The position numbers and the translations under genes are program-made. DNA of 41,118 nucleotides from Deltaproteobacteria bacterium (GTDB lineage Bacteria; Myxococcota_A; UBA796; SXON01), in contig VGRQ01000003.1 of assembly GCA_016875315.1 (NCBI GenBank), positions 1 to 41,118 of the forward strand, given 5' to 3'. The notes beneath the pieces were generated by a model that did no database searches, was not told where the DNA came from, and worked only from the letters and a program-made list of their open reading frames with translations. Each line of letters begins with the position of its first letter. Positions within the stretch are counted from its first letter, which is position 1. This document shows, piece by piece, positions 20,362 to 41,118 of the stretch.

Positions 20362-20362
20362 C

Positions 20363-21232: not shown

Positions 21233-21244
21233 GCGAGCCGCCCC

Positions 21245-22882
21245 CTACTCCGTCATCGTGACGGCCACCCGCACGCTCCCCGTCGAGGCCCGCGGGAACT
21301 TCACCTGCGCCAGCCGCTCTCCCACGCAGTCCTCGGTGGGCGCGTGGGGGTAGTTGAGCAGGCGGGTGCGCGTCACCGCGCCGGCGTCGTCGAGGGTCAC
21401 CTCGATGCCGAGGTAGGGCGGGGCCCGGCAGGCCCGCTCGGCGCGCACGCCCTCCACGCCGAGCTGGTAGGCGATGGCCTGCCACTCCTTCCGCGCGGCG
21501 GCGTCGGGGTCGGTGCTGGTGAGCGCGCGGGAGGTGTCGCGATGCGTGAACCACCACAGGGCGCCGCCCAGCGCCAGTCCAAGGCAAACAAGCAGGAGGC
21601 CGCCTGCCACGCAGCCCACCCCGGCGGTGCGCGCGGCGGGGTTGGCCGCCATGCGCTCGATGGTGGGGACGGGGCTCAGCGGCACGCCGGCGGGGGCGCG
21701 GAGTTTCCCAGACGCGGTGGGCTCGTCGAGCGTGGGCACCGAGGTGGGGACCGACCGCGTTTCCACCGGGGCGGCCTTCGGCGCCGCCTTCGGGTGGACC
21801 GAGATGGTGTCGTCGACGGGCCCGCTCCCCGCCGTGACGCTGCTGTAAAGCGGGGCGCCGCCCGTCGGGATCGGCCCTGGATCGCGCCCCGCCGCGATGG
21901 CGTGGAGACGCTCGGCGAGGGTCTCGATCGCGCAGCGGTCGCCGGGGTCGGCGGCCATCGCGGCGGCGAGGGAGTCTTCCATCCAGCTCTTGGGGGGGCC
22001 GTCGAGCTGGGGCAGCCGCGGCGGCAGGTGGCGCAACAGGTGGTCGCGCTGGTCTTCCACGTCGAGCTCGGCCATGTACTCGGCCACCGGGCGCGCGGTG
22101 AGGCAGAAGTACAGCAGGGCGCCGACGGCGTACACGTCGGTGGCTGGCTCGGGCGTCATGCCGTCGAACTGCTCGGGGGCGGCGTACTGTGGCGTGCCGA
22201 TGAAGGCGCCCACGCGCGTGAGGCGGTCGCCCACTCCGCCAAAGACCTTGGCGATGCCGAAGTCGGCCACGCGCACGCGGGGCACCTCGTCGCGGGTGGC
22301 GATGGTCTCCAGCAGCACGTTCTCGGGCTTCAGGTCGCGGTGGATCACGCCCTGGCGGTGGGCCACGCCCAGCGCATCGCAGATCTGCACGCCGATGGCG
22401 GCGGTGGCCTCGACCGACAGGGTGCCCACGCGGCGGATGTGGTCGAGCAGCGAGCCCCCGGCCTCGAAGCGGGTGACGAGGTAGGGCGAGTGGCCCGAGC
22501 GATGCACGAAGCCGCGGCACTCGACGATCTGCGGGTGGTTGAGCCGCTGCAACACGTTGGCCTCGGTGGCGAGGCGGTGCAGGTAGGCGCCCTGGTCGCG
22601 TTGCTGGTAGAGCACCTTCAAGGCGAGGAGCGGCCCGGTTTCCTCGTCGCCCTCGCCGAGCTCCCGGCCGAGGTAGGTCACGCCGGCACCGCCGATGGCG
22701 AGTCGCGAGTGGATCCTGTAGGTACGGTCGAGCAACTCGCCGGGCTCCATCAGCTCTCCCCAGCCCACCGCCGGTCGCGCGTACCGGCAGCCGAGGTTGG
22801 GGCAGCGCGCCTCGTCGGCAAAGAACGTCGTGAGGCAGCGGCTGCAATAGCGCGTGCGCGGCGGCTCACTCTCGGTCATCAC
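21245..22882 (-). CDS. Membrane Hanks-type Ser/Thr kinase: N-terminal Cys4 ribbon, kinase, linker, TM, C-terminal AgmX/TonB-C-like domain
   Basis: CSRC..CPNLGC; LALK; HRDLKPEN; DFG; GTPQYAAPE; DVYAVG; TM helix; DCVGERLAQVKFP. Start may be 22879, 22882 or 22891. Confidence 0.93.
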   Translation of the reverse strand: MMTESEPPRTRYCSRCLTTFFADEARCPNLGCRYARPAVGWGELMEPGELLDRTYRIHSRLAIGGAGVTYLGRELGEGDEETGPLLALKVLYQQRDQGAYLHRLATEANVLQRLNHPQIVECRGFVHRSGHSPYLVTRFEAGGSLLDHIRRVGTLSVEATAAIGVQICDALGVAHRQGVIHRDLKPENVLLETIATRDEVPRVRVADFGIAKVFGGVGDRLTRVGAFIGTPQYAAPEQFDGMTPEPATDVYAVGALLYFCLTARPVAEYMAELDVEDQRDHLLRHLPPRLPQLDGPPKSWMEDSLAAAMAADPGDRCAIETLAERLHAIAAGRDPGPIPTGGAPLYSSVTAGSGPVDDTISVHPKAAPKAAPVETRSVPTSVPTLDEPTASGKLRAPAGVPLSPVPTIERMAANPAARTAGVGCVAGGLLLVCLGLALGGALWWFTHRDTSRALTSTDPDAAARKEWQAIAYQLGVEGVRAERACRAPPYLGIEVTLDDAGAVTRTRLLNYPHAPTEDCVGERLAQVKFPRASTGSVRVAVTMTE

Positions 22883-22943
22883 CGGCGACATCTATCAGGT
22901 CGCCGCTTGTATGCCGCCGTCCTCGCCGGTAGGCTTCGCGGCC

Positions 22944-27580: not shown

Positions 27581-27706
27581 GGCGTCAATCTAGTCTGTGC
27601 CCGGCCTTCCCGTCTGGCCCTTCGCGAACTCCGTCGTCACCCGCGCGGTCTCGGGGAGGCGTTCGGCGGCGTGCGCCCGGGGGGTCGAGGTCGATACACT
27701 AGGCCG

Positions 27707-28210
27707 ATGTTGTTTCTGGCCTTGCTCGCCTGCGAGCCGATGCCCTCCTCGGGCGAGATCTTCGCGCCGGTGAAGGTGGAGGCTGCGAAGCCCACCGGGC
27801 CCGACCAGCGTTTCGCGGAGCTCGACGAGCCGCGCTTCAAGATCTCCAGCGAGGAGATGGCCTCGGGCACGATGCCCGCACCCGCGCCGGCAGAGGGCGA
27901 GCCCTCCGCCGCCGACGCCGCCCTCGGCTCGCCCGCCCCCGTCCCCGCGGCCGCGGCGCCGGTCGGCCTGCCCTCGCCAACCAGTTTCCCGGTCCGGCTG
28001 GTCTCGACGATCGTGTCGGCGCAGCCCCCGCGCGCGGTGGTTGGCCTGCCGTCGGGCGAGGAAGTCGTGGTCTCGCCCGGGTCGGTGCTCGCCGCCGAGG
28101 GCCTCGTCGTGATGGCGGTGATGGACGGCCGCGTGCAGCTCGCGAAGATCAAGCCGCAGGGCGATCACGCCGCCATCGAGTCGATCGAGATCAGCGCGCA
28201 GTACCCCTGA
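27707..28210 (+). CDS. Putative lipoprotein with PilP-like C-terminal beta domain
   Basis: MLFLALLAC; Pro/Ala linker; VRLVSTI..PRAVV..PSGEEVVV..G pattern; TACACT 6 nt upstream. Confidence 0.6.
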   Translation: MLFLALLACEPMPSSGEIFAPVKVEAAKPTGPDQRFAELDEPRFKISSEEMASGTMPAPAPAEGEPSAADAALGSPAPVPAAAAPVGLPSPTSFPVRLVSTIVSAQPPRAVVGLPSGEEVVVSPGSVLAAEGLVVMAVMDGRVQLAKIKPQGDHAAIESIEISAQYP

Positions 28211-28949
28211 AGCGCCAGTAGATCGCCGCGCCCACCGTCACCAGCACGGCCGACGTGGCCTGCGCGTTGGTGGCGAGCCCGCCGAGCACGTAGCCGCGGG
28301 CGGGATCGCCGCGGAGCAGCTCGTTGAGGAACCTCGCCACGGGGTAGGTCAAGAGCAGCAAGGCGAATCGCTGTCCCGTGAAGGCACGGGGGCGGAAATG
28401 CAGGAAGGCCGCGATGAAGAGGCAGTAGATCGTCTCGTAGATCTGCGTGGGGTGGAGCGGCACCCCGGCGGGGGCGATGCGCGAGCCCTCGGGGAAGGTC
28501 ACCGCCCAGGGCACCGAGGTGGGGGCGCCGTAGCAGCAACCGGCACCGAGACAGCCCAGGCGGCCGAGCGCCAGGCCCACCGGCAACCAGGGCGAGAGGA
28601 GGTCGAGCATCGCCAGCGGCGAGAGGCCGCGCCGCTTGCAGAAGGCCACGATGCCGAGCACGCTCGCGACGAAGCCCCCGTAGTACACCAGGCCGCCGTC
28701 GTTCACGCGCGGGATGGCCGCGAGGTCGTGGCTGAAGTCGGCCCAGTGGGTCCGCACGAACTCCAGTCGTCCCCCGAGCACCGCCATCGCGAAGATGACG
28801 TGTACCACGCTCCAGGTGTCGTCGGGGTCGATGCCCTCGCGCCGGGACGACCACGCCGCGCCCAGCGCCGCCACGAACACGCCGCCTCCGAACAGCACGC
28901 CGTAGGTGTGGAACGTCACCCCGCCGAGCTGGAAAAGCTCGGGAAACAT
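28191..28949 (-). CDS. lgt: Prolipoprotein diacylglyceryl transferase
   Basis: TYG, GGRL, GGLVYYGG, GRLGC, HPTQIYE, RFLNELLR; follows lspA. Confidence 0.93.
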   Translation of the reverse strand: MFPELFQLGGVTFHTYGVLFGGGVFVAALGAAWSSRREGIDPDDTWSVVHVIFAMAVLGGRLEFVRTHWADFSHDLAAIPRVNDGGLVYYGGFVASVLGIVAFCKRRGLSPLAMLDLLSPWLPVGLALGRLGCLGAGCCYGAPTSVPWAVTFPEGSRIAPAGVPLHPTQIYETIYCLFIAAFLHFRPRAFTGQRFALLLLTYPVARFLNELLRGDPARGYVLGGLATNAQATSAVLVTVGAAIYWRFRGTAR

Positions 28950-29534
28950 CTACTCGAGCGAGGGCGCGGAGGAGCCGGGAGCCTTCACCGCCTCGGCTTC
29001 CTCGGCGGGGCGGTCTTTCTCGTAGAGGAAGCTGATGGCGAAGAGGCCGAGGCCGATGAAGATGCAGCTGTCGGCGATGTTGAAGATCGGCCACACGTGG
29101 CTGTTCAGGGGAGGCAGGTCGCGCAGCCAGGACTTCCCCGGCTCCCAGCCCCACTGCACCTTGATCATGTCGGTGACGGCGCGGAACAGGAGCCGATCGA
29201 TGAAGTTGCCGAGCGCGCCCGACAGGATGAAGCCCATCGCCGCGCCCTGGAGCCGATCGTCGACGCGGAGCTGCTTGTAGCCTTGCCACAGCACCACCAC
29301 CGCCACGCCGGTGAGGGCAAAGAACACGTGGTAGCGGTACTCCCAGTCGTCCATCGCCGAGAACGCTGCGCCGGTGTTCTTGGCGTGAGCGATCGAGAGG
29401 AAGTTCGGGACGATGACCCACTCGTCCTTGTAGGGCGTGAGACTGGCCCGCACGACGAGCTTGCTGAGCTGGTCGAGGACCAGGAACAGGGCGGCGGTGC
29501 CGAGGAAGGCGGAGGTCTTCGGGTGCGGCGACAT
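28950..29534 (-). CDS. lspA: Lipoprotein signal peptidase II
   Basis: DQLSK, NTGAAFS, GALGNFIDR, VTD, WPIFNIAD; ATG 29534 has TACCGT 8 nt upstream. Confidence 0.95.
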   Translation of the reverse strand: MSPHPKTSAFLGTAALFLVLDQLSKLVVRASLTPYKDEWVIVPNFLSIAHAKNTGAAFSAMDDWEYRYHVFFALTGVAVVVLWQGYKQLRVDDRLQGAAMGFILSGALGNFIDRLLFRAVTDMIKVQWGWEPGKSWLRDLPPLNSHVWPIFNIADSCIFIGLGLFAISFLYEKDRPAEEAEAVKAPGSSAPSLE

Positions 29535-29629
29535 CGGGCGCGACGGTAGCGCGGGCATGCCCCCTCGTCTACGCGCTGCGACCGGCCGTGACCAAGGAGG
29601 TTATGAACGGCGGCTCAGTCGGAGACCCG

Positions 29630-31303
29630 ATGCAGCGCGAAGCGATGCCCGTAGACGTTCTGTTCGTGGGGGGCGGGCCGGCCTGCCTCGCGGGCGCCAT
29701 CCGCCTGCTCGACCTGGTCAAGGCGCACAACGAGTCCGGCGCCGAGCCGAAGTTGCCCGAGCTCACCATCGCCCTGCTCGACAAGGGCAGCGAGATCGGG
29801 AGCCACGCGATCTCCGGCGCGGTGCTCGACCCCCGCGCCCTCGGCGAGCTGATCCCCGACTGGAAGTCGCAAGACCCCTACTTCGTCGAGCGCCACGTGG
29901 AGAAGGAGACCTTCCTCGTGCTCACGCCGAGGCACGCCGTGCCCGCGCCGATGATGCCGCCCGGCATGGAAGACCACGGCCAGCCCATCATCTCCATCGC
30001 CAAGTTCCAGAAGTGGCTGGCGGCGCAAGCGGAGGCGCGGGGGATCATGCTCTTCGCCGGCTTCGCGGGCACGCAGTTGCTCTACGAGGACGGCCGCGTG
30101 GCGGGGGTGCGCACCGGCGACAAGGGCATCGGCCCCGACGGCCAGCCCAAGCCCAACTTCGAGCCGGGCATCGACATCCAGGCCAAGGTGACCATCCTCG
30201 GCGAGGGCCCGCGCGGCACCCTCGCGCGGCAGCTCATCAACCACTTCCGCCTCGACGCCGACAGCCAGCCGATCGTCTACGAGATCGGCGTCAAGGAGGT
30301 GATCGAGATGCCCCCGGGCACCGTCACCCAGGGCGAGGTGACGCTCACCTTCGGCTACCCGCTCGATCTCAACACCTTCGGCGGCGCGTTCATCTACAGC
30401 CTCGCGGGCGATCGCTACGCCGTGGGCATGATGGTAGGTCTCGATGCGAAAGACCCGGCGATGGACGCGCACTACCTCCTGCAGAAGTTCAAGGCGCACC
30501 CCGCCATTCGCGCCAAGCTCGGCAAGGGCAAGGTGGTGAAGTACGGCGCCAAGGCGGTCACCGTGGGCGGCTGGCCCTCGATCCCCAGGCTCTACGCCCC
30601 CGGCGCGATGATCGTGGGCGACAGCGCCTCGTTCCTCAACCCGATGCGCATCAAGGGCATCCACCTGTCGATGAAGTCGGGCATGCTCGCCGCGGAAACG
30701 GCCTTCGAGGCGCTCAAGCGCGGCGAGGCCAGCGAAGACGTGCTCAAGGCCTACAAGGCGGCCGTCGACGCGAGCTGGATCCGGGAGGAGATGGAGCCGG
30801 CGAAGAACTTCCACCCCGCGATGGAGAAGGGCGTGATCGGCGGCATGGCCGCCGTCGGCATGTCGCTGGTGTTTGGACCGGGCGAGCAGAAGCCCTTCCA
30901 CGCCGACTACGAGCACGTGCACAAGAACGCGGCGGTGCGCGGGCAGCACGCCTACCCGGCGCGCGACGACATCGAGTACGACGGCACCTACATCGTCGAC
31001 AAGCTCACCGACGTGTACCACTCCGGTACCAAGCACGAGGAGAAGCAGCCGGCCCACCTCCACGTGGTCGACACCAACCTCTGCGCCACCCAGTGCGCCG
31101 AGGAGTACGGCAATCCTTGCACCCGCTTTTGCCCCGCCCAGGTGTACAACATGCACTTCAGCGAGACGACCAAGCGCAACGAGCTGCAGATCGACTTCAG
31201 CAACTGCGTGCATTGCAAGACCTGCGACATCCGCGACCCCTACCAGGTGATCACCTGGGTGCCGCCGGAGGGCGGGCAAGGGCCGGAGTACGGGATTCTC
31301 TAG
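29630..31303 (+). CDS. Electron transfer flavoprotein-ubiquinone oxidoreductase
   Basis: DVLFVGGGPA, SGAVLDP, GDSASFLN..RIKGIH, C-terminal 4Fe-4S (CTRFCPAQVY, NCVHCKTCDIRDP, WVPPEGG). Alternative starts 29588 and 29603. Confidence 0.95.
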   Translation: MQREAMPVDVLFVGGGPACLAGAIRLLDLVKAHNESGAEPKLPELTIALLDKGSEIGSHAISGAVLDPRALGELIPDWKSQDPYFVERHVEKETFLVLTPRHAVPAPMMPPGMEDHGQPIISIAKFQKWLAAQAEARGIMLFAGFAGTQLLYEDGRVAGVRTGDKGIGPDGQPKPNFEPGIDIQAKVTILGEGPRGTLARQLINHFRLDADSQPIVYEIGVKEVIEMPPGTVTQGEVTLTFGYPLDLNTFGGAFIYSLAGDRYAVGMMVGLDAKDPAMDAHYLLQKFKAHPAIRAKLGKGKVVKYGAKAVTVGGWPSIPRLYAPGAMIVGDSASFLNPMRIKGIHLSMKSGMLAAETAFEALKRGEASEDVLKAYKAAVDASWIREEMEPAKNFHPAMEKGVIGGMAAVGMSLVFGPGEQKPFHADYEHVHKNAAVRGQHAYPARDDIEYDGTYIVDKLTDVYHSGTKHEEKQPAHLHVVDTNLCATQCAEEYGNPCTRFCPAQVYNMHFSETTKRNELQIDFSNCVHCKTCDIRDPYQVITWVPPEGGQGPEYGIL

Positions 31304-31935
31304 GGGACGGTGACGATCACGGCGGCGGGGCCGGCCGGCGGCTGCGCGTCGACGGCGAGCTTGGCCGCCTCGGCCACGCAGTGCGCCCGCGACTCGTTCT
31401 CGCTGGTGCCGTCGCTCGCCCAGGTGGTGCCGTCGGCGTCGACGACCACGGCGACGGCGATCGGCTCCTCCTGGGGCCACGCGTCGAGACACCGCCTCAC
31501 CGATGGGTCGGCCGCGGCGGCCTCGTCGAGCGCGGCGTCGCGGCGCACCGGCTCGCCGGGGACGGTGAAGTGCCACCGGTACTGCCCGGTGTCGAGATCG
31601 ACGGTGGCCGAGGAGAGGCAGCCGGAGGTCGGCAGGCTCAGGGTGTGTGCGCCCGACTCGTCGCGGAAGTGGAACTCGCGAAACACCACGCCGTCGCCCT
31701 CGCGGAGGATGAACTCGGTGTGTACCCGCTGTCCCGCGCTCTCCGGGCGCATCGCCCGCTCGATGATGGTGCAGTAGCGCAAGCGCTTCGCTCCCCAGGG
31801 CGGCTTCGCGAGCGTCACGAAGCCGTCGGCGTCGACCTCCACCGCGGGGCGGGGCGCCGGCGCCTCCCGCGTGAACCACCAGGCTGCCCCGCCGGCGAGC
31901 GCCAGCACGAGGAGGGCGACGAGGGCTCGTTTCAC
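31300..31935 (-). CDS. Membrane-anchored hypothetical protein with C-terminal AgmX/TonB-C-like domain
   Basis: Signal anchor MKRALVALLVLALAGG; C-terminal RRCL..AVAVVVDADG..HCVAE pattern; in-frame TAG just upstream fixes the start. Confidence 0.7.
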   Translation of the reverse strand: MKRALVALLVLALAGGAAWWFTREAPAPRPAVEVDADGFVTLAKPPWGAKRLRYCTIIERAMRPESAGQRVHTEFILREGDGVVFREFHFRDESGAHTLSLPTSGCLSSATVDLDTGQYRWHFTVPGEPVRRDAALDEAAAADPSVRRCLDAWPQEEPIAVAVVVDADGTTWASDGTSENESRAHCVAEAAKLAVDAQPPAGPAAVIVTVP

Positions 31936-31944
31936 CGCGCCCGT

Positions 31945-32848
31945 CTAGCCTGTCGCGTGCCGCGGGGGGCCGGGGTGGCAGGCGCCGCGAGCCGCAGCAT
32001 CGGCTACAGGCCCTGGGAAATTTCTCTCTGGGTTAGCCTGATTTGGGACTGCTCGTGGATCGCCCAGCCCCCGATGACTGCCGTGCCGGCGCCCAGGAGC
32101 AGGCCGATGGCGCGCGCGCGGTGGCGCTTGGCCTCGAGTCGCTCCGGCGGGAGCTGCGCGTTCACCGCGGCGGGTGCTGGCCCCCAGGGCAGCGCGGTGC
32201 CGAGCTCCAGCATGGCCAGCGCGGCCACCGGCGGCTCGGAGGACACGCGGCCACAGCACACGTCGGCGGTCACGCCCAGCTCCGCGCCGAGCAGCAGCCC
32301 GGGATGCCCCACCCACCGTCCCCAGATGAAGCCACTGGCGCGCGCGCGGGCCAGGTCCTGTCGCGACTCGTCCGCCAGCGTGTAGTGCAGGATGCCCGCG
32401 TCGAGCCGGACGCCCGGTCCCCAGCCCTCCATCCCGTCGGCCGCGACGTTGAAGGAATAGCCCAGCTCGGGGGCCCAGTAGGCCTCGCGGACGACCCACT
32501 CGTTGTCTACGTGGTCGCCTTCCACCACCCTGAGAACCTCGTTGGTTTCCATCGTCCAGGTCGCCCCGGCGCTCAGGATCGAGCGCCGCGTGGGCGCCCA
32601 CAGCAGCCGTGGGCTCACGACGCCCTCCGGTTCGGCCCCCGCGCCCACGGTCGCGGCAACGCGATAGTCGTGCTTGTCCCCGGGGAGAGGTAGGTCGGCG
32701 GCGTAGAGGCAGCTGATGAGGAGCATGCCGGAGGAGCAAGCAAGCCCCGTGCCTTTCAAGAAATGTAGGTTCTACCGTAAGTAGACGGTTCGTGCTGCGT
32801 AATCCGGGTGGCGGTGGGCCCCCGCGGTGCGCACTTGGCGACGCGGTG
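31945..32848. repeat. Direct repeat copy 1 (~900 bp)
   Basis: Colinear with 34240-35143 at a constant offset of 2295 bp. Confidence 0.92.
32004..32726 (-). CDS. Hypothetical exported protein, paralogue 1 (beta-strand-rich with C-terminal TM helix)
   Basis: Frame conserved in both repeat copies. ATG 32726 (MLLISCLYA-ADLP) or TTG 32759. Confidence 0.7.
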   Translation of the reverse strand: MLLISCLYAADLPLPGDKHDYRVAATVGAGAEPEGVVSPRLLWAPTRRSILSAGATWTMETNEVLRVVEGDHVDNEWVVREAYWAPELGYSFNVAADGMEGWGPGVRLDAGILHYTLADESRQDLARARASGFIWGRWVGHPGLLLGAELGVTADVCCGRVSSEPPVAALAMLELGTALPWGPAPAAVNAQLPPERLEAKRHRARAIGLLLGAGTAVIGGWAIHEQSQIRLTQREISQGL

Positions 32849-32973
32849 AGCGCCGAGATCCTCTTGCCGATGACGCCCGCCGGGGCGCGTGCCGGCCGAG
32901 CCGTCTCCTGCTGCGGGGCGACCATTTCCACGGCCCGGTGCCGGTGGACGGGGCGCATTGGGTGACGACCTCG

Positions 32974-34230
32974 TCACGGGCCGATCGGGTACGACTCGTT
33001 GAAGATCACCCGTTGTCGTGGGTAGTCCGCCATCGGCTCGCCCAGGTCGATGGGCAGGTCGGGCCAGAACTGGCGTAGTTCCTCGTCGAGGCGCACCTGC
33101 GCCATCTCGGCGGCGTTCTTCTCGGTGAGGCGCACGTAGGTCACCGTCACCTCCACGCGCGCCGCGCCGGCGAGCGACAGCCGCGGCGTCCAGGCACGGG
33201 TTTCCGCAGCTTGCAGGCGGTTGTCGGCCAGTTTCCGGGCGGGCCGACCGGTGGTGTCGTCACCCCAGTCCCAGGTCTGGCCGATGCGGAGGAGATCGCT
33301 GGCGAGAGGCGCGCCCTGGGCGTCGATCGCTCGTGCCTCGACGAGCACGTGGCGCTCGGGATCGCCGGTGGGGATGGCGTGACCGGCCCGCGCGTTGACC
33401 AGCCGCACTTCCAGGGGCGCGACGCTCACCGCCACGTCGAGCCCGGGTTGCCAGTCGGCCAGCGACTCGAGGTCGTCGACGTGCTTGGGCAAGCCGCCGC
33501 CGGGCCAGGTGTGCGCGCGCAGCAGCTCGGCCGGGGCGCCGGCGGCCGCGGCTCGCGAGGTGCTGGGCATGTGGCAGTCCACGCACCTGGAGCCGGCCTG
33601 CGGCCCGGCGGCGACCTCCTCGGCGGTGGTGAACCAGCACGGGAAGGTGGGGGTGATCACGATGTTGGCACCGGGGCTGTGGCAGCCCTCGCACACGCCC
33701 TCGAGCGCAGCGGCGTCGTGACGAACCCGGTGCGGAGCGCGACCGCTGCCTCGCGGCCCCACGACCGTCCCCTCGCCGTCGTCGTCGCGACGCACGTGGC
33801 AGGCGGCGCATCCGATGCCCTCGGCCACGCGCGCGGGGTCGAAGGCCGGGTTGGGCGCGGCCTCCACCCGTTCGACCGAGCCTGCGGCGGCGAGGCGCGT
33901 CTCCGGGGTGATCAGCAGCGATCGCTGCGGGGAGGTGGGGGCATGGCAGTTGAGGCAGAGCCATCGCGGCTGGCCCGGCTTCGACATCTCGGCGAGGTAC
34001 TGCACGTCGCGCACCGCGTCGGCGTGGGTGGTGGCCGACCACTCGGCGAGGTGGCCGGGGTGGCAGGCGCCGCAGGTGCTGGCGCGGGTGTCTACCTCGG
34101 TCCCGTCGAGCATCGCGAGGGTGGAGGGCGTGTCGATCGGGGTGGCGAAGCGGTAGTCGCCGATGCGCTCGCCAATGGTGGGCGGCAGTTCCGCGCGGGG
34201 GCCGGTGCAGGCGAGCAGGAGGGCGAGCAC
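32974..34230 (-). CDS. Multiheme c-type cytochrome lipoprotein (5 CxxCH; c554-like family)
   Basis: CGACH, CLNCH, CAACH, CEGCH, CVDCH; W..T.HA and AGHAIPTG motifs; MLALLLAC N-terminus. Confidence 0.9.
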   Translation of the reverse strand: MLALLLACTGPRAELPPTIGERIGDYRFATPIDTPSTLAMLDGTEVDTRASTCGACHPGHLAEWSATTHADAVRDVQYLAEMSKPGQPRWLCLNCHAPTSPQRSLLITPETRLAAAGSVERVEAAPNPAFDPARVAEGIGCAACHVRRDDDGEGTVVGPRGSGRAPHRVRHDAAALEGVCEGCHSPGANIVITPTFPCWFTTAEEVAAGPQAGSRCVDCHMPSTSRAAAAGAPAELLRAHTWPGGGLPKHVDDLESLADWQPGLDVAVSVAPLEVRLVNARAGHAIPTGDPERHVLVEARAIDAQGAPLASDLLRIGQTWDWGDDTTGRPARKLADNRLQAAETRAWTPRLSLAGAARVEVTVTYVRLTEKNAAEMAQVRLDEELRQFWPDLPIDLGEPMADYPRQRVIFNESYPIGP

Positions 34231-34239
34231 GGCGTGGGA

Positions 34240-35143
34240 CTAGCCCGGCGGCGCGGCGGCGGGGGCCGGGTGGTTGGCGCCGCGAGCCGCGGCGGCGACT
34301 AGATGTTGGTGGAGATCTGTCCCAGGGGCAGCGAGAACGTGGACAGCTCGTAGATCGTCCAGCCCACGAAGACGGCCGTGCCGGCGCCCAGGAGCAGGCC
34401 GATGGCGCGCGCCCGGTCGCGCTTGGCCTCGTGTTGCTCCGGCGGGAGCTGCGCGTTCACCGCCGCGGGTGCTGGCCCCCAGGGCAGCGCGGTGCCGACC
34501 TCCAGCATGGCCAGCGCGGCCACCGGCGCCTCGGAAGACACGTGGCCGCAGCACACGTCGGCGCTCACGCCCAGCTCCGCGCCGAGCAGCAGCCCGGGAT
34601 GCCCCACCCACCGGCCCCAGACGAAGCCACTGGCGCGCGCGCGGGCCAGGTCCTGTCGCGAGTCGTCCGCCAGCGTGTAGTGCTGCATGCCCGCGTCGAG
34701 CCGGACGCCCGGTCCCCAGCCCTCCATCCCGTCGGCCGCGACGTTGAAGGAATAGCCCAGCTCGGGGGCCCAGTAGGCGTCGCGGACGACCATCTGCGTG
34801 TCTTCCCGGTCGCCTTCCACCCACCGGAGAGTCTCGCTGGTCTGCATGGTCCAGGTCGCCCCGGCGCTCAGGATCGAGCGCCGCGTGGGCGCCCACAGCA
34901 GCCGTGGGCTCACCACTCCGTCTGGTTCGGCCCCCGCGCCCACGGTCGCGGCAACGCGATAGTCGTGCTTGTCCCCGGGAAGAGGTAGGTCGGCGGCGTA
35001 GACGAAGGTGATGAGAAGCATGCCGGAGGAACAAGCAAGTCCCGTGCCTCTCAAGAAATGGCGGTTCTACCGTAAGCAGACGGTTCGTGCTGCGTAATCC
35101 GGGTGGCGGTGGGCACCCGCGGTGCGCACGTGGCTACGCGGTG
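34240..35143. repeat. Direct repeat copy 2 (~900 bp)
   Basis: Colinear with 31945-32848. Confidence 0.92.
34299..35021 (-). CDS. Hypothetical exported protein, paralogue 2
   Basis: Same length and frame as paralogue 1. ATG 35021 (MLLITFVYA-ADLP) or TTG 35054. Confidence 0.7.
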   Translation of the reverse strand: MLLITFVYAADLPLPGDKHDYRVAATVGAGAEPDGVVSPRLLWAPTRRSILSAGATWTMQTSETLRWVEGDREDTQMVVRDAYWAPELGYSFNVAADGMEGWGPGVRLDAGMQHYTLADDSRQDLARARASGFVWGRWVGHPGLLLGAELGVSADVCCGHVSSEAPVAALAMLEVGTALPWGPAPAAVNAQLPPEQHEAKRDRARAIGLLLGAGTAVFVGWTIYELSTFSLPLGQISTNI

Positions 35144-35158
35144 CCGCGGGGGACGGCC

Positions 35159-35914
35159 CTACCCGCAGTCGAGGAACTCGCGCCCGAGATCCCACGTCTT
35201 GACCAGGGTGGAGAAACTCGCCGGCCGCGCCGCGCACACCTCCTCGGCCAGCGCCTCGGCGTCGGCCCAGGCATCGACGTACTCCACGTGGAACACCGCC
35301 TTGCCGGCGTCGATGAAGGGTTCCACCCGCGCACACTCGTCGTAGGCCACGCACTCCTCGTTCAGCGCCCAGTCGAAGTCGGGCTCCAGCTCGCGCACCT
35401 GGTCGAGGTCGTTCTTCAGGCCGACGGAGAGGCCTCGGTCGTGGGCCGCCCCGGCGAGGAAACGGTTGTAGTCGAGCTGGTCGCTCGCAGCGAGGTCGAA
35501 GCCGTTGTCGTTGGCGTAGCCATCCACGTTGTCGGGCTCGACGGCGTCGCAGCCGCGTTGCACCGCGTGGTCGAGGCGCGCTTCCATGAGCGACCGGACG
35601 GTGCTGTCGCGAGTGTCGAGCCAGCGCTCGCCTGCCCAGCCATCGAGGGCCTCGCCGAGCGCCGCCTCGGGGAAGTCGCCCGCGTCGTCGCGCCAGTCCT
35701 CGTGGCTCCCGGCGGAGAAGTAGCAGATGACCACGCGGCCGGCCTCGCGCAGGTCGTCGATGGCGCGGTCGGGCGCGTCGAAGAGGTCGACGTCGTAGGC
35801 GGCCACGTCGATGCCCGTGTCGACCTGCCCGCTGAGCTGCCACTGCCAGGTGGTGCCGGGCGGGGGCGCCCAGCGCTCGGCGTCGTTGGTGCAGGCCGCG
35901 AGAAAGAGCCACAT
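35159..35914 (-). CDS. GH114 endo-alpha-1,4-polygalactosaminidase-like lipoprotein
   Basis: WQWQL, YDVDLFD, ICYFSAGS.EDWR.D, EPDNVD, GLKND, NEEC, VFHVEY; ATG 35914 with TATCCT 6 nt upstream. Confidence 0.92.
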   Translation of the reverse strand: MWLFLAACTNDAERWAPPPGTTWQWQLSGQVDTGIDVAAYDVDLFDAPDRAIDDLREAGRVVICYFSAGSHEDWRDDAGDFPEAALGEALDGWAGERWLDTRDSTVRSLMEARLDHAVQRGCDAVEPDNVDGYANDNGFDLAASDQLDYNRFLAGAAHDRGLSVGLKNDLDQVRELEPDFDWALNEECVAYDECARVEPFIDAGKAVFHVEYVDAWADAEALAEEVCAARPASFSTLVKTWDLGREFLDCG

Positions 35915-35958
35915 GGGCCAAGGATAGCACCCCGCCAGAGGACAACGCCCGGTGGCCC

Positions 35959-36513
35959 TCAGGACCGGGTGATGCTGTCGAGCGTTCGCCGCTCGGGCAC
36001 CGCGTGCAGCGACTCTCCGGCCAAGTCGACGTAGAGCTCCCCCTCGTTGACCGACACCGACCACCCGGTGCGCTTCTCTAGCCTCGCGGCGAGGGCAGCG
36101 ATGAAAGTCCGGTCGAGGATCACGACCTCCACTCGCTCGGGCGCGTGGACCTTCTGGCCCTGGAGCTGGCGAAGCCACGCCGACGGCTCCTTGTGACAGT
36201 ACACCCGGACGCGCCCGCAGGCCTTGCTCGCCCTGTGCAGCCGGGCGGCGTCGGGGGTGCCCACCTCGATCCAAGCCCGCAGTTGCCCGGTGAGGTCGTG
36301 TACCCAGAGGGCGGGCTCGTCGGCGTTGCTCAGCCCGCCGGAGAAGGCGAGCCCCTCCTCCAGCTCCAGGGCGTACGCCAGCACGCGCGCCACGAGGTAC
36401 TCGGCGCTCTCGGAGGGATGGCGGGCCACCTTCAGGGCGAGGGACTCGTACAGCCCCCGGTCGACGTCGGACAGGGCCACGTCGAAGTTGTGGACGGTGG
36501 CGGTGAGGGCCAT
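35959..36513 (-). CDS. yaeQ: YaeQ family protein
   Basis: MALTAT, SDVDRG.Y, ARHPSE, GLS..DEPALW..DLTG, WIEVG.PD..RLHRA motifs. Confidence 0.93.
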   Translation of the reverse strand: MALTATVHNFDVALSDVDRGLYESLALKVARHPSESAEYLVARVLAYALELEEGLAFSGGLSNADEPALWVHDLTGQLRAWIEVGTPDAARLHRASKACGRVRVYCHKEPSAWLRQLQGQKVHAPERVEVVILDRTFIAALAARLEKRTGWSVSVNEGELYVDLAGESLHAVPERRTLDSITRS

Positions 36514-36521
36514 CCGCGCGG

Positions 36522-37520
36522 CTAACGCGGAGGCCGGAGCGCCCGGCGACGAAGGCCCACGAGCGCCCCGGCGAGCGCCGGCACCCACCCGGCCTCCACC
36601 GGCAGGCCGCACACGCCCACCTCGTAGGACATCGACGTGATCGCGCCCTCGACGCCGCCGCTGCCGTCGGCTTGCCCGAGATCGTCGCAGGCGGGCGCGG
36701 GCAGCTCGTGGCCGATCTGGTCCTCGATCCAGTCGATCGCCGCGTCGGGGCGCGTGTAGATGCCGCCCTCCGAGCAAGGCAGCCGGGCGTCGCCGTAGCC
36801 GCGCGAGGTGATGCCCACGAGGTAGGCGCCGTCGTCCGTCACCAGGTAGAGCGGGCCGCCGGAGTCGCCGAAGCAGGCATCGACGCCGCCCCCGCCCGCG
36901 CCGAGCTCGCCCGCGGGCGACACGCGCTCGTTGCAGCCTCGATCGAGATCGGTGCAGTCCGGGTCCTGCACCTCGGTGTAGCCCTCGTTCAGCCGGGTGC
37001 CGTACACCTCGCCGCGCTTGTCGGTGGCGCCGTACCCCACCACCGCCACGCTGGCGCCCACGTCGAGCCACTCGTCGAGGGCGCAGGACTGCGCGATCAC
37101 TCGCGGTTCCACCGTGGAGGCGTGCTCGAGGAACACCAGCGCCAGGTCGTAGGTGCGCGCCCACTTCGGGTAGGCCACCACCTTGCGCGCGGCGATGCGC
37201 TCCCCCCCCTGCTCGAAGTCGACCGTGTCGAGCTTCACGGCGGTGATGCCCTCGGCGCAGTGCCCGGCGGTGAGCACCACGTCGGGGGCGACGAGCACGC
37301 CGGTGCACCCCACCTCGCGGCCGAAGTAGATCGCGGCCACGTCGGGCCAGGCGCCTGGAGAGGCGGGGGAACCGCCGGTGACCGGCTGGTCGTCGGCGCC
37401 ATCGTTCTCGCCGGGCGCGTCGACGTCGCCGGGGAGGGCGTCGGTGGCCTCGGTGGCCTCGGGGGAGGCGCTGTCGAGCGGGACCGCGGCGAGGGCAAAG
37501 GACAAGAGGGGAAGGACCAA
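36522..37520 (-). CDS. Trypsin-like (S1) serine protease with MYXO-CTERM-like anchor
   Basis: LTAGHC, DLAL, DACFGDSGGP triad; C-terminal GVCG-hydrophobic-LRRR. Start uncertain (TTG 37520, GTG 37529 or 37574). Confidence 0.88.
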   Translation of the reverse strand: MVLPLLSFALAAVPLDSASPEATEATDALPGDVDAPGENDGADDQPVTGGSPASPGAWPDVAAIYFGREVGCTGVLVAPDVVLTAGHCAEGITAVKLDTVDFEQGGERIAARKVVAYPKWARTYDLALVFLEHASTVEPRVIAQSCALDEWLDVGASVAVVGYGATDKRGEVYGTRLNEGYTEVQDPDCTDLDRGCNERVSPAGELGAGGGGVDACFGDSGGPLYLVTDDGAYLVGITSRGYGDARLPCSEGGIYTRPDAAIDWIEDQIGHELPAPACDDLGQADGSGGVEGAITSMSYEVGVCGLPVEAGWVPALAGALVGLRRRALRPPR

Positions 37521-37692
37521 GATTTCCACCAGGAACTCCGGGGCGAGGGGTTGCACCGGTTCCGACACCGGCACCCGCCGTGGCGTGACCCCGCGGAAGA
37601 TCCGTTGCAGGGGGCGACAGGCGGTGACCAGCGGGGCCGCCGTCGCTGTTGCCCGCCGGTGGGCGCCGCCTCGCGCCGGCTACACTGCCTCG

Positions 37693-39324
37693 ATGTTGCC
37701 CCTCCTCGCCTGCGCTGCCTCGATCCCCGGCCCGGCCGGCGAGGCCTCCGTGGCGAGCGCCGACGACACCGCGGCCGACACCGCGGCCGAGCTCGTCGGC
37801 GGGCCCGAGGAGATCGACCCCAGCGACGCGGTGTTCGACGCCTCGGTGGTACACCGCATCGACATCGAGATCGACCCGGCCGCCTGGTACGACATCCAGT
37901 ACAACTACGCGGCGGAAACCTGGTGGACGGCGGACTTCTCCTTCGACGGGGAGACGGTGACCGACGTGGGGATCCGCGCGTTCGGGGCGGGGAGCCAGGT
38001 GGCGGGCAAGACGCCGATCAAGTTGAGCTTCGACCGCGTGGTCGACGGGCAGGAGTTCCGGGGCCTGGAACAACTCAAGCTCGACGGCAGCACGCAGGAC
38101 GCCGGCTTTCTCAACGACCCGCTGGCGGCTTGGGTGCTGCGGGAACTGGACCTGCCGGCGGCGCGCATGAGCTGGGCGACGGTGTACGCCAACGGGGAAC
38201 AGTGGGGCTTCTACGTGGTGATGGAGCCCATCGACGACGTGTTTCTCCGGCGCCACTTCGAGGACGACGAGGGACCGCTCTACGGCACCTGGGACTGGCG
38301 CTACGGCCAGGGCCTCAACCCCATCACCTGGGGCGGGCCGCTCGACTGGTACGTGCCACAGACCAACGTGGAGACCGACGGCAGCGACATCGTCGCCGCG
38401 ATGACGGCGGTGGCGAGCGGCAGCGACGAGGAGCTGGCCGCCACCGTGGAGACCGAGCCCTTCCAGCGCATCTCGGCCACCCGCGCGATGATGGGCGCCA
38501 TCGACATGTTCGCCGCCGACGGCAACAACTTCTACCTCTACAATCACCAGGGCCGGATCACGATGATCCCCTGGGACATGGACGCCGACCTCGGCTACCC
38601 GGGCTACTTCATCAACGCGGTGGAGATGGGCCTGGAGGAGCCGTGGTTGTGGTCACACGCGCGCTACAACCCGGTGACCGGCGCGCTCTACAGCGACCCG
38701 CTCTACGCCCGGACGCTCGCCCAGGGCTGGGACCTCGCGGGCTGGGTGGATCATGCCACGTCGGGTCCGCTCGACTGGGCGACCATCGACGCCAAGGTGG
38801 TGGAGTGCGCGAGCACGATTCACGACGCCGCCTGCGAGGACAGTTACCACGGCTGTGGTAGCCACGAGCGGCGCGTGGCCGACCTGCGCATGTTCTTGCA
38901 CACGCGATTGTCGCGAATCGCCGGTGCCGAGGTGGCGGACTGTCCCGGGCCCACGTCGCTGTCCTTCTCGTCCGGTGGCGTGGTGGTCCCCCCCGACGCC
39001 ACCTACTGGGGGCCGGGCTTCGTCGTCAACGGCGAGCACCACTGCAACGGGGTCTACGCCGGCGCGCCGGCCACGCTGGTCACCACCGTGGAGGCCGGTA
39101 CGCTCAGCGGCGCGGTGGGACAGCACGACTGGGTGCAGTATTGCTCGGGCACTTCCGTGTTCAGCGTGTCGCAGGGGGGCGTGGTCTTGTGGCAGAGCGA
39201 GGCGGTGGGCCCGTATGCCAGCGCGGTGCCCTTCGAGGTGAGCGTGGCGGCCGGGGAGGTGACCTTGTCCACCACCCTGTCGGGCAACTGTGCGGCGGCG
39301 AGCTGGGTGGGGGTGGGGCAGTAG
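37693..39324 (+). CDS. CotH kinase family lipoprotein with C-terminal NPCBM-like beta domain
   Basis: K.PIKLSFD, GFYVVMEPID, NNFYLY, IPWDMD; MLPLLAC start with TACACT 6 nt upstream. Confidence 0.85.
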   Translation: MLPLLACAASIPGPAGEASVASADDTAADTAAELVGGPEEIDPSDAVFDASVVHRIDIEIDPAAWYDIQYNYAAETWWTADFSFDGETVTDVGIRAFGAGSQVAGKTPIKLSFDRVVDGQEFRGLEQLKLDGSTQDAGFLNDPLAAWVLRELDLPAARMSWATVYANGEQWGFYVVMEPIDDVFLRRHFEDDEGPLYGTWDWRYGQGLNPITWGGPLDWYVPQTNVETDGSDIVAAMTAVASGSDEELAATVETEPFQRISATRAMMGAIDMFAADGNNFYLYNHQGRITMIPWDMDADLGYPGYFINAVEMGLEEPWLWSHARYNPVTGALYSDPLYARTLAQGWDLAGWVDHATSGPLDWATIDAKVVECASTIHDAACEDSYHGCGSHERRVADLRMFLHTRLSRIAGAEVADCPGPTSLSFSSGGVVVPPDATYWGPGFVVNGEHHCNGVYAGAPATLVTTVEAGTLSGAVGQHDWVQYCSGTSVFSVSQGGVVLWQSEAVGPYASAVPFEVSVAAGEVTLSTTLSGNCAAASWVGVGQ

Positions 39325-39327
39325 GGC

Positions 39328-40995
39328 TTACCTCCCCACCAACTGATCCCTCACCGACTGCGGATAACTCTGCACCGTGGCCACGGTATAATCGAGGTAG
39401 TAGTCGTGTGTCGACATCCCGAATTCCTTGCGGGGGTCGATCTCGATGTAGGGCCGCAGCCAGTCGGCGAGGTCGGTCGCCACCCCGTCGAGCTCGAGGT
39501 CGTCCATCGTGTAGGTGGCCTCTTCGAGGATCTCGTTGTACCGGTCGTAACAACTGTCGATGGCGAGGCAGAAGGTGAACAGTCGCCCGTAGCCGCTCCA
39601 GGGGCCGTAGTACGCGGTCATGAAGGTCTGGTCGGTGCCCCAGGGGATGATCTGGAACTGGCCGGTCGTCGGGTCTTTGTAGAGGCGGTAGTTGTTGCGC
39701 GTGGTGTAGCCGTCCCAGTGCAGCGCCACCGCCTCCACCGCCATGTTGCGGAGGAACTCGTCCATGTCCACCATCGTCTCCACCTCGGCCAGCACCGCCT
39801 CGTTGCTGCCCTGGTCGAGCACCGCGATCAGCTCGGTGAGATCGGACCGATCGGAGGAGTCCGGTCCCTCGTCGTACTCGAAGCTGTTCTCGTAGCCGCT
39901 GTAGAGGTCGACCCCGTAGGCGCCCTCGAACAGCGGGCCGGAGCTGTCGGCATACCAGCGGTCGAGGAAACGGTCGTCGATGCTCTCCATGATGAGGTAG
40001 AGCCCGTAGTCCTGCCCGTTGACGGTCACCCAGGCGTAGCCCTGCCGCGGCGCGGGCACCCCCATCTCCCGGTACAGGGTGTAGGCCATGTACTCGTGGA
40101 CGTAGGTGACGTCTTGCACCATGTTGTTGAGGGTGAGCGTCTCGATCCCGTGCCAGCGGCGGTCATCGTACTCGTTGAGGTCGAGCTTGAAGCCACACTT
40201 CTGGTCGAGCGTCCGGCTACTGCCCACGTAGGCCTTCAGTCGCACCTGCACGTCGGGAAACTCGCCCTCGGGGAAGGTGACGCTGCCGTCTACCCACGTG
40301 AGCCGGCTGGCCCGGAGCGAGGCCATCGCCGCGTCGGACAGGCCGATCTCGATGGGGATGATCTCGTCGAGCTGGAACACCAGGTTGGTGGGGTCGAGGT
40401 CGGTGTCGCCGGTGGCGGGATTCTCGCTCCCGGCCGAGGTGTGGATGGTGAGTCCCCACTCGCCGCCGTCGGGCAGCCGCGCCCAGGCCACGTCGCGGGG
40501 TAGCTCGCCGAGGGCGATCCGGTCGGACACGCGGCTCTCGACGGTGAGCGTGAGCTGGTCGCCGTCGCCATCGAGGGCGAAGGGGGCGTGCTCCGGGCCG
40601 GCGTCGGGATTGCCGTCGGCGATGATGACGTAGCGCGCGCCGGGCTCCAGCGTGCCCTCGCTGCCGAGCCAGAGCACGTCGCCGCTGTCGGCGAGCGCGA
40701 GGTGAGCCAGGGGGACCGCCTCCGCAGACGCGTTGTAGATCTCCACCCAGTCGGGCCAGGATCCGTCGCCGCCATCCCAGGTGGAGTCGTTGCGGGAGAC
40801 GATCTCGTTGAGTAAGACCCTTGGCGGGTCCGGGTCGGGGGGCGTCCCGGTGTCGACCGGCGCGGGCTCGTCGGTGTCGCGCGAGTCGAGGACCACGCCG
40901 GTGTCGGGGCGCTCGAAGCTGGGGACCGGCTCGATCGCGCCCGTGGCCGACTGGGTGACAGTGGGCGTGTCGGTGCAGGCGAGGAGCAGGAGCAC
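39328..40995 (-). CDS. Lamin-tail-domain + CotH kinase family lipoprotein
   Basis: LNEI...DWVEIYN (LTD); FKLDLN, LTLNN, GLYLIMESID, WDGY, NNYRLY, IPWGTD. Confidence 0.9.
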   Translation of the reverse strand: MLLLLACTDTPTVTQSATGAIEPVPSFERPDTGVVLDSRDTDEPAPVDTGTPPDPDPPRVLLNEIVSRNDSTWDGGDGSWPDWVEIYNASAEAVPLAHLALADSGDVLWLGSEGTLEPGARYVIIADGNPDAGPEHAPFALDGDGDQLTLTVESRVSDRIALGELPRDVAWARLPDGGEWGLTIHTSAGSENPATGDTDLDPTNLVFQLDEIIPIEIGLSDAAMASLRASRLTWVDGSVTFPEGEFPDVQVRLKAYVGSSRTLDQKCGFKLDLNEYDDRRWHGIETLTLNNMVQDVTYVHEYMAYTLYREMGVPAPRQGYAWVTVNGQDYGLYLIMESIDDRFLDRWYADSSGPLFEGAYGVDLYSGYENSFEYDEGPDSSDRSDLTELIAVLDQGSNEAVLAEVETMVDMDEFLRNMAVEAVALHWDGYTTRNNYRLYKDPTTGQFQIIPWGTDQTFMTAYYGPWSGYGRLFTFCLAIDSCYDRYNEILEEATYTMDDLELDGVATDLADWLRPYIEIDPRKEFGMSTHDYYLDYTVATVQSYPQSVRDQLVGR

Positions 40996-41009
40996 GGGTG
41001 AAGCTTAGC

Positions 41010-41118
41010 TCAGCTTCGGCGCCGGGCGAACACCGCGAGGAGCCCGAGCCACGCGGGCCACGCGCCGGCGCTGTCGCAACCGCAGCCGGCGGGCGGCTCC
41101 TCCTTGCCGGGCGGCGCG
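41010..41118 (-). CDS. 3' end of a MYXO-CTERM-anchored protein (partial)
   Basis: Translates as ...KEEPPAGCGCDSAGAWPAWLGLLAVFARRRS-stop: GCGC, hydrophobic stretch, Arg cluster. Confidence 0.8.
   Translation of the reverse strand, partial: APPGKEEPPAGCGCDSAGAWPAWLGLLAVFARRRS

Follow-up and report, generated by a model that had tools for sequence, protein, structure and literature searches.

How short can a bacterial secretion signal become? The question is raised by a stretch of 41,118 nucleotides (nt; hereafter the window), which is the whole of contig VGRQ01000003.1 in assembly GCA_016875315.1 of a Deltaproteobacteria bacterium (GTDB lineage Bacteria; Myxococcota_A; UBA796; SXON01). An initial annotation of this DNA had pointed to five proteins that begin with six to eight hydrophobic residues and a lipobox-like cysteine, have no basic n-region and would be exported as lipoproteins, together with a slightly longer case starting at 10111, and had proposed a minimal lipidation signal that is recognised by Sec, Lgt and LspA in an unusual way. 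We followed these leaders through the genome and its relatives, and we consider that they are probably genuine minimal Sec signals, of both the signal peptidase II (SPII) and the signal peptidase I (SPI) kinds, used on a proteome scale in part of one Myxococcota order alongside standard-looking machinery. Sec signals of both kinds, ending in a lipobox cysteine or in an AxA motif, have most likely been compacted to about 7-12 residues in this genome and in two families of its order.

The source genome (G000) is a metagenome-assembled genome of 5.5 Mb in 881 contigs, with a guanine plus cytosine (GC) content of 70.8% and a completeness of 92%. Both strands were read at the cited sites of the window and translated, and all five ultra-short N-termini, as well as the longer leader at 10111, were found as described (Table 1). 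All six fit the lipobox and none of the six leaders contains a lysine or an arginine. The window proteins with Pfam matches are, to judge from their domains, of exported kinds (CotH, multihaem cytochrome c, FG-GAP/MopE), the cytochrome gene encoding five CxxCH motifs, while a Pfam search returned no match for the protein of 27707-28210.

Genes of G000 were predicted with a home-made caller in which codon log-odds were trained on long frames of high GC at the third codon position and the start was placed at the maximal summed score. It called 4,912 genes and chose independently the same starts in the window as the initial annotation. A lipobox cysteine was counted where the residues before it, up to eight, were uncharged and mostly hydrophobic, in 4,881 genes. 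The resulting histogram of first-cysteine positions, a check that had been suggested for the whole genome, peaks at residues 7-9 and far above background: there are 91 genes at residue 7, 135 at residue 8 (the mode), 102 at residue 9, 62 at residue 10 and 39 at residue 11, against 215 at residues 12-18 together and 46 at residues 19-35. Residues 7-11 thus account for 429 of the 4,881 genes, and with a background of 0.57 lipobox cysteines per position at positions 100-300 the excess of short leaders is more than 150-fold. When nothing was demanded of charge and hydrophobicity the peak was almost unchanged (94, 139 and 110 genes at residues 7, 8 and 9). The 135 proteins with the cysteine at residue 8 have alanine at position -1 in 110 cases and glycine in 23, with leucine at -2 in 100. 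Leaders of the class at residues 12-18, which are also short by ordinary standards, mostly carry one arginine near the N-terminus, typically as residue 2. The ultra-short leaders therefore fit the lipobox pattern [LVI][ASTVI][GAS]C but have neither a basic n-region nor the h-region of about 7-22 residues and cysteine at about residue 15-35 that go with an ordinary lipoprotein signal.

These positions depend on the starts being rightly placed. For 487 genes with the cysteine at residues 6-12, the frame upstream was inspected: 338 have no alternative start inside 30 codons, 241 have no other upstream in-frame ATG, GTG or TTG at all, and in 124 the upstream stop lies at most 15 codons from the cysteine. 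In the window, the initial annotation had regarded an in-frame TAA before the 40995 gene and an in-frame TAG before the 34230 gene as fixing those two starts, and had noted TAnnnT boxes before the other three. Each of the three boxes does stand exactly 6 nt upstream of its ATG. The two stops are present and in frame, but they are better read as the opening triplets of hexamers that likewise stand 6 nt before the start codon, so that all five genes have one common upstream layout. Across the genome, 218 of 4,584 genes have TAnnnT upstream at exactly 6 nt from the called start, and the distribution of spacings peaks sharply at this value; the short-leader genes contribute 68 of 486 and all others 150 of 4,098, whereas neighbouring spacings give 0-47 and internal start-like codons have the box at 6 nt in 0.1% of cases (n = 1,465). 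An in-frame stop exactly three codons upstream is found in 414 of the 4,912 genes, and in the 69 short-leader genes among them it is always a TAG or TAA that heads the hexamer. Either a -10-like or a Shine-Dalgarno-like motif precedes 59% of short-leader genes, compared with 15% of the 1,465 internal controls; the box itself is present in about 14% (strict motif) to 28% (loose motif) and a Shine-Dalgarno-like motif takes its place in about one third. The layout suggests that leaderless genes may be widespread in this genome. The gene upstream of the 40995 gene stops at TGA 41012-41010, only 14 nt before the 40995 start, so that co-transcription could also occur there.

An error of assembly had been named as a possible source of falsely short N-termini. 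Contigs of run X1, made with another assembler, span 32790-34404 and 35085-41118 and have zero indels at the four starts that lie there; this run contains 95% of the sampled words of the window and may be the source sample. In one X1 contig, positions 34261 and 34262, which lie upstream of the cytochrome hexamer, both read A in place of G. Low-depth contigs of X3 and X4 show a 1-base loss at 34214 and a 1-base gain at 34218, within the codons of the cytochrome leader; since the frame is regained within 4 nt, these indels probably come from a related strain.

Short leaders are not a property of lipoproteins alone. Residues 2-7 are uncharged and mostly hydrophobic in the products of 912 of the 4,881 genes (18.7%, against 4.5% after an internal methionine), and 475 of these 912 have no lipobox cysteine in the first 13 residues. 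Many of them read like MLLLLATLAHA/DD or MLFLAALALA/DD (the slash marks the predicted cleavage site). AxA-type ends fall at positions 9, 10, 11, 12 and 13 in 74, 68, 47, 41 and 34 genes, an excess of about 2- to 4-fold over pseudo-starts, and across the classes ending at positions 7-13 (34-74 proteins each) a lysine or arginine occurs in only 0-4 proteins per class. More telling are proteins that have to pass the inner membrane: leaders ending in ALA, AHA, AQA or AFA stand on TonB-dependent receptors (MLCLSAALA/AEPS, with a stop four codons upstream; MLLAALALA/DDVP; MIAPFLSLAFA/QEAP), on OmpA-family proteins (MMLLTISLALA/QDA, with a stop one codon upstream; MLPLVALALA/QDL), on an Omp85 (BamA-like) protein (MIVLLALLLSATAFA/QD) and on proteins with a MYXO-CTERM tag, about 13 of 21 of which have leaders of 9-15 residues without lysine or arginine. 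Like SPI signals, these leaders have a hydrophobic core and then small residues at -3 and -1, and they belong to exported proteins; what they lack is a basic n-region and a core as long as about 10-15 residues. Ordinary leaders are kept by some G000 proteins, including LolA and one TonB-dependent receptor. Because short uncharged AxA leaders occur on proteins that are not lipoproteins, the trait is one of Sec signals in general and the question shifts away from Lgt and LspA, contrary to the earlier view of a peculiarity of the lipoprotein pathway.

Two SPI-like leaders had also been proposed in the window. MLLITFVYA/A is real, and a paralogue that is 83% identical likewise has a leader of 9 residues, MLLISCLYA/A; the pair (32004-32726 and 34299-35021) brackets the multihaem cytochrome c gene, and neither member has a Pfam match. 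LVLPLLSFALA, on a minus-strand trypsin-like gene with two candidate starts within 37518-37574, requires TTG 37520, which is preceded by GGTGGAA and would yield the 11-residue leader M-VLPLLSFALA/AVPLD; GTG 37574 is also open as a start and would yield an acidic N-terminus of 29 residues.

Orthologues retain both the short leader and the cysteine, the loss of which at residue 7 or 8 would have spoken against the proposal. For the multihaem cytochrome, this is so in six of ten close orthologues: VVLLLLAC in G009 (stop three codons upstream), MLVLISLGC in G011, MLVLISLSC in G007, MILLALAC in G006, MFTLLLLGC in G012 (stop 12 codons upstream and no other start) and V(AW)VLLLAASC in G004 (stop two codons upstream). 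The remaining four, from G003, G005, G029 and G028, have ordinary arginine-bearing leaders of 19-25 residues, so that both forms of leader are found on one protein family. The 35914 gene has the orthologous leaders MLLSLFAC (G009) and MLSLLAAC (G008), and the 27707 gene has MLFLALLAC (G010), MLLLALLAC (G009) and MLWIALLAC (G008), the last with a stop three codons upstream. In eight genomes the open frame of the orthologue of the 40995 gene is only 557-562 codons long, against a protein of 555 residues.

Relatives were run through the same pipeline as G000 on samples of 220-400 kb each. The numbers of lipobox cysteines at residues 5-11, 12-18 and 19-35 were 25, 23 and 11 in G011 (median position 13) and 21, 19 and 4 in G003 (12.5), both of the same genus as G000; 8, 11 and 4 in G012 of the same family (13); 32, 11 and 2 in G019 of family f2 (9); 14, 15 and 7 in G022 of family f5 (13); 5, 10 and 5 in G020 of family f3 (14.5); and 4, 4 and 13 in G029 of family f6 (21). 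The short leader is dominant in the samples of two families of this order, f1 and f2. G029 has an equal GC content and was treated with the same caller, and its median of 21 therefore indicates that the caller itself does not shorten leaders. As a marker, a DNA pattern encoding M/V-LLLL-A-C with GC-rich codons was then searched in 301 genomes of the phylum. It matched 12 times in G000, 13 times in G019, six times each in G004 and G012, five times in G125 and four times in G261, all of families f1 and f2, and there were two matches in one f6 genome. Outside the order, none of 257 genomes had more than one match (six had one), and the reversed pattern, as a control, gave 0 or 1. Families f4 and f7 (G027 and G030) were judged by the marker pattern only. 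Together with the histogram of G000, the relatives bear out the claim that short leaders are used systematically in the lineage. As to its placement, 21 MYXO-CTERM matches above the cut-off were found in G000 and none in 14 control genomes, and a gene cut by the contig edge at 41010-41118 of the window (minus strand) ends in a MYXO-CTERM-like tail, GCGCDSAGAW...ARRRS, with a hydrophobic stretch followed by RRRS; these matches and the tail place the genome in Myxococcota. The tag is described in the abstract of PMC11980579 as universal in Myxococcota.

Table 1. Leaders, upstream hexamers and lipoprotein-processing genes in the window (positions are those of the window; aa, amino acids)
Feature	Position	Strand	Gene and remarks
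Leader GTG-LLLLAC, 7 codons	40975..40995	-	CotH and lamin-tail-domain protein (Pfam), gene 39328-40995
Leader GTG-LALLLAC, 8 codons	34207..34230	-	Multihaem cytochrome c (Pfam), gene 32974-34230
Leader MLPLLAC, ATG, 7 codons	37693..37713	+	CotH and NPCBM protein (Pfam), gene 37693-39324
Leader MWLFLAAC, ATG, 8 codons	35891..35914	-	251-aa protein, gene 35159-35914
Leader MLFLALLAC, ATG, 9 codons	27707..27733	+	167-aa protein, gene 27707-28210
Leader TTG-IAFLPAFLAAC, 12 codons	10111..10146	+	FG-GAP/MopE-motif protein (Pfam), gene 10111-11829
SPI-like leader MLLITFVYA/ADLPLPG, 9 residues	34299..35021	-	240-aa protein
Leader MLLISCLYA/ADLPLPG	32004..32726	-	240-aa paralogue of the 34299-35021 protein
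Hexamer TAAGCT	41002..41007	-	6 nt before GTG of the 40995 gene; its TAA (41005-41007) is the in-frame stop
Hexamer TAGTCC, imperfect -10-like	34237..34242	-	6 nt before GTG 34230; its TAG (34240-34242) is the in-frame stop
-10-like box TACACT	37681..37686	+	Exactly 6 nt before ATG 37693
-10-like box TATCCT	35921..35926	-	Exactly 6 nt before ATG 35914
-10-like box TACACT	27695..27700	+	Exactly 6 nt before ATG 27707
lspA (Peptidase_A8)	28950..29534	-	Sole copy found in G000; 14-residue insert between Asp motifs
lgt, prolipoprotein diacylglyceryl transferase	28191..28949	-	Directly downstream of lspA

Elsewhere in the window, a minus-strand gene at 1678-7173 encodes a protein of 1,831 aa of the hybrid polyketide synthase/non-ribosomal peptide synthetase type, with KR, PP-binding, AMP-binding and condensation domains, and is adjoined by a GGACT/AIG2-like gene at 152-1390. 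A PP2C-type phosphatase gene adjoins a Ser/Thr protein kinase gene of the opposite strand at 20219-22891.

Several features of these proteins may compensate for what the leader lacks. Residues +2 to +21 after the cysteine have a net charge of -3.2 (Lys plus Arg 0.9, Asp plus Glu 4.1), compared with -0.76 for the proteome, and form a tether rich in Asp, Pro, Thr and Ser. The leucine fraction at positions -5 to -2 is 0.63 where the cysteine is at residue 7-9 and falls steadily to 0.34 where it is at residue 19-35. About three quarters of the ultra-short leaders have Leu, Ile, Phe or Trp as residue 2, and by the methionine-aminopeptidase rule a bulky residue 2 means that Met1 is kept, so that Met1 should be retained here. 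These features also fit the idea that the signal hairpin is oriented by the charge difference across the core and not by the n-region as such. We thus propose a leader architecture in which Met1 is followed by 4-8 uncharged, mostly leucine residues and then by the cleavage box, with no basic n-region. Proteins with such leaders would be exported by the ordinary Sec translocon, after which Lgt, LspA and Lnt would process the lipoproteins, and the remaining proteins would go to signal peptidase I. The more hydrophobic, leucine-rich core would make up for the short length, the retained Met1 adding to it, and the charge difference that orients the hairpin, for which the leader itself has no basic residues, would come from the strongly acidic, Lys- and Arg-poor first 20-40 residues of the mature protein, perhaps assisted by the N-terminal amino group.

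The machinery that such a scheme needs is encoded. G000 has one each of SecY, SecA, Ffh, LspA, Lnt, LolA and peptide deformylase, three S26 peptidase matches and cytochrome c assembly proteins; Lgt, LspA and Lnt, the genes expected for Sec/SPII, are all present. Two weak Lgt paralogues, with 29% identity to the Lgt of the window, lie at C7:16974-17759 and C13:6559-7026 of G000. The initial annotation had drawn attention to an insert in LspA. The insert exists: compared with chain 5dir_A, the stretch between the Asp motifs is longer by 14 residues; however, an Asp-motif spacing of 40-43 residues (52 in one) was found in 33 of 33 sequences from 28 genomes of the order, including G029 with its ordinary leaders, and the insert was therefore rejected as the cause of the trait. 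Two LspA matches were found in 13 of 30 relatives (G001-G007, G011, G013, G015, G019, G023 and G027). A second LspA as a specialist enzyme was likewise rejected, as a single match each is found in G000 and in the three genomes closest to it (G008, G009 and G010). Six SecY sequences were aligned to chain 5abb_A, namely L163 (G000:C355, which lacks the N-terminal 70 residues or so at a contig end), L241, L242 and L244-L246; SecY of G019 was not included. Isoleucine is kept at E. coli positions 82, 86, 191, 278 and 408, which we take to form the pore ring, and serine stands at the position aligned to Ile187 in six of six sequences of the order, G029 included. A SecY change of the prlA type is consequently unsupported as a cause, the aligned pore positions being conserved and Ser187 being shared with G029. 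At the position aligned to 411, asparagine occurs only in G000, G010 and G011, and the other sequences have glycine. In all, no change that tracks the trait was found in LspA or SecY; SecA, SecE/G, YidC, Ffh, LepB and Lgt were not compared and no systematic search for a candidate factor was made.

Could it be that the leaders are real but are exported only with the help of something altered or extra in this clade, such as a modified SecY, SecA or signal recognition particle, a dedicated chaperone, retained N-formyl-Met or a thinner membrane? A restriction to part of one order is what a lineage-specific change would predict, and the paired LspA matches of 13 of the 30 relatives and the two weak Lgt paralogues of G000 would be in keeping with it, as would the fact that the canonical description, as it is given in parts of PMC9360617, leaves no room for a core of 5-6 residues that lacks a basic residue. 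Yet the LspA insert is shared with ordinary-leader G029, the most extreme case (G000) has a single LspA, the pore-aligned isoleucines of SecY are kept and Ser187 is common to all six sequences with G029 among them, leader lengths are graded across families in a manner that resembles drift along a tolerance and not a switch, and no candidate factor was found, though none was systematically sought. We regard such a component as unlikely. A bolder possibility, to which we give slightly more credit while still doubting it, is that part of this Myxococcota order has rewritten the Sec rules, so that Met and 5-6 leucine-rich, uncharged residues, too few to cross the membrane, suffice throughout the proteome by way of a recognition or insertion step that departs from the hairpin model of the textbook; a neutral formyl-Met N-terminus that dips into one leaflet, orientation by the acidic region only, or a further component might then be involved. 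An unusual recognition mode may thus be inferred, as the initial annotation did, with no component as its candidate; its short leaders, exported kinds of protein, conserved cysteine and systematic use have stood, while the specificity for lipoproteins and the link to LspA have not. Our preference for minimal signals that are handled by ordinary machinery has to be set against a number of points. Tolerance by that machinery is assumed, nothing in LspA or SecY tracking the trait, and export, lipidation, cleavage and leaderless transcription of these genes are deduced from sequence. The PROSITE rule PS51257 places the cysteine at about residue 15-35 and expects a lysine or arginine in the n-region. 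A bilayer is too thick to be spanned by a core of 5-6 residues. Canonical signals need a basic n-region and a longer h-region, according to sections of PMC9360617. The data themselves impose further reservations: G000 has an estimated contamination of 6.3% and is spread over 881 contigs, the gene calls and starts rest on a crude home-made caller, the lipobox filter requires an uncharged context by design, the AxA test has a high background (35, 19, 10, 15 and 12 pseudo-starts at positions 9-13), relatives were covered by samples of 220-400 kb and not by whole genomes, and the marker fits GC-rich codons only, so that low-GC members of the phylum could not match.

Two further explanations take issue with the leaders themselves. 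The leader might stay uncleaved as a small anchor dipping into the membrane, with the cysteine unlipidated, or lipidated with the leader still attached; it may indeed be too short to present the scissile bond normally to LspA or LepB, and the catalytic Asp pair of LspA sits within the membrane, as stated in a part of PMC9360617. We hold this to be improbable, given that residues -3 to +1 follow the lipobox, with alanine or glycine at -1 in 133 of the 135 Cys-8 proteins, that the SPI-like leaders end in AxA, the motif that the peptidase reads, that a disordered, acidic tether rich in Pro, Thr and Asp follows the cysteine as in ordinary lipoproteins, and that Lgt, LspA and Lnt are all encoded. 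It might also be argued that wrong starts, assembly errors or non-canonical starts conceal ordinary signals, or that N-termini of leucine and alanine arise by chance at 71% GC. The caller was home-made, and 149 of the 487 genes have some other start within 30 codons; 74 of the 487 can be extended to a leader that carries lysine or arginine and are hence ambiguous. Nevertheless, the upstream stop is at most 15 codons from the cysteine in 124 genes, orthologues in other genomes retain stop and leader, promoter or Shine-Dalgarno motifs are positioned at the called starts, the same caller returns a median of 21 in G029 at equal GC, the excess over background is above 150-fold and an independent assembly has no indels at the starts. 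Evidence from starts, orthologues, controls and assembly has thus already largely refuted an artefact, and the chance that we leave to it is very slight.

If minimal Sec signals of this kind work, the tripartite signal of basic n-region, membrane-length core and cleavage region would be one end of a range and not a requirement, and the accepted minimum length of a bacterial secretion signal may be too high, these leaders being about half the textbook length. Several hundred natural minimal signals would then be at hand for probing what Sec, Lgt, LspA and signal peptidase I need, and the leaders could serve in engineering as very short tags for secretion or lipidation. About 9% or more of this proteome would probably escape predictors that expect a basic n-region and a cysteine beyond about residue 15, and gene callers may misplace such starts in many metagenome-assembled genomes. 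A search of the full-text literature, which left most subscription journals outside its reach, returned no description of such leaders.

Among known systems, Actinobacteria and Deinococcus have leaderless mRNAs whose -10 box lies immediately before the start codon, and TAnnnT at exactly 6 nt before the start resembles that layout, here at the level of sequence; the difference is that the box precedes only about 14-28% of the short-leader genes. Type IV prepilin (class III) leaders are similarly very short and N-terminal. They are charged and are cut before a hydrophobic segment that the mature protein keeps, as described in a portion of PMC9360617. In the proteins reported here, by contrast, it is the leader that is hydrophobic, and the sequence after it is polar and acidic. 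With Sec/SPII signals such as that of E. coli Lpp the leaders share the lipobox L-[A/S]-[G/A]-C, the invariant cysteine, the disordered tether, the presence of lgt, lspA and lnt, and the exported kinds of protein; they differ in having no basic n-region, a core of 4-6 residues plus Met1, and the cysteine at residue 7-11 instead of about 15-35. Sec/SPI signals are roughly 20-25 residues long and have a basic n-region. The AxA leaders have the same hydrophobic core, small residues at -3 and -1 and then an acidic start of the mature protein, but within 9-15 residues and with no lysine or arginine. Work in E. coli by Kendall, Mizushima and Beckwith on idealised signals and prlA suppressors is said to have found that a leucine-rich hydrophobic core offsets lost length or charge, and here too the leucine fraction rises as the leaders shorten. 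The alignable SecY positions are not changed in any way that tracks the trait, unlike those of prlA (secY) suppressors; and whereas the engineered minimal signals are laboratory constructs or mutants, the short leaders described here are the natural state of hundreds of genes.

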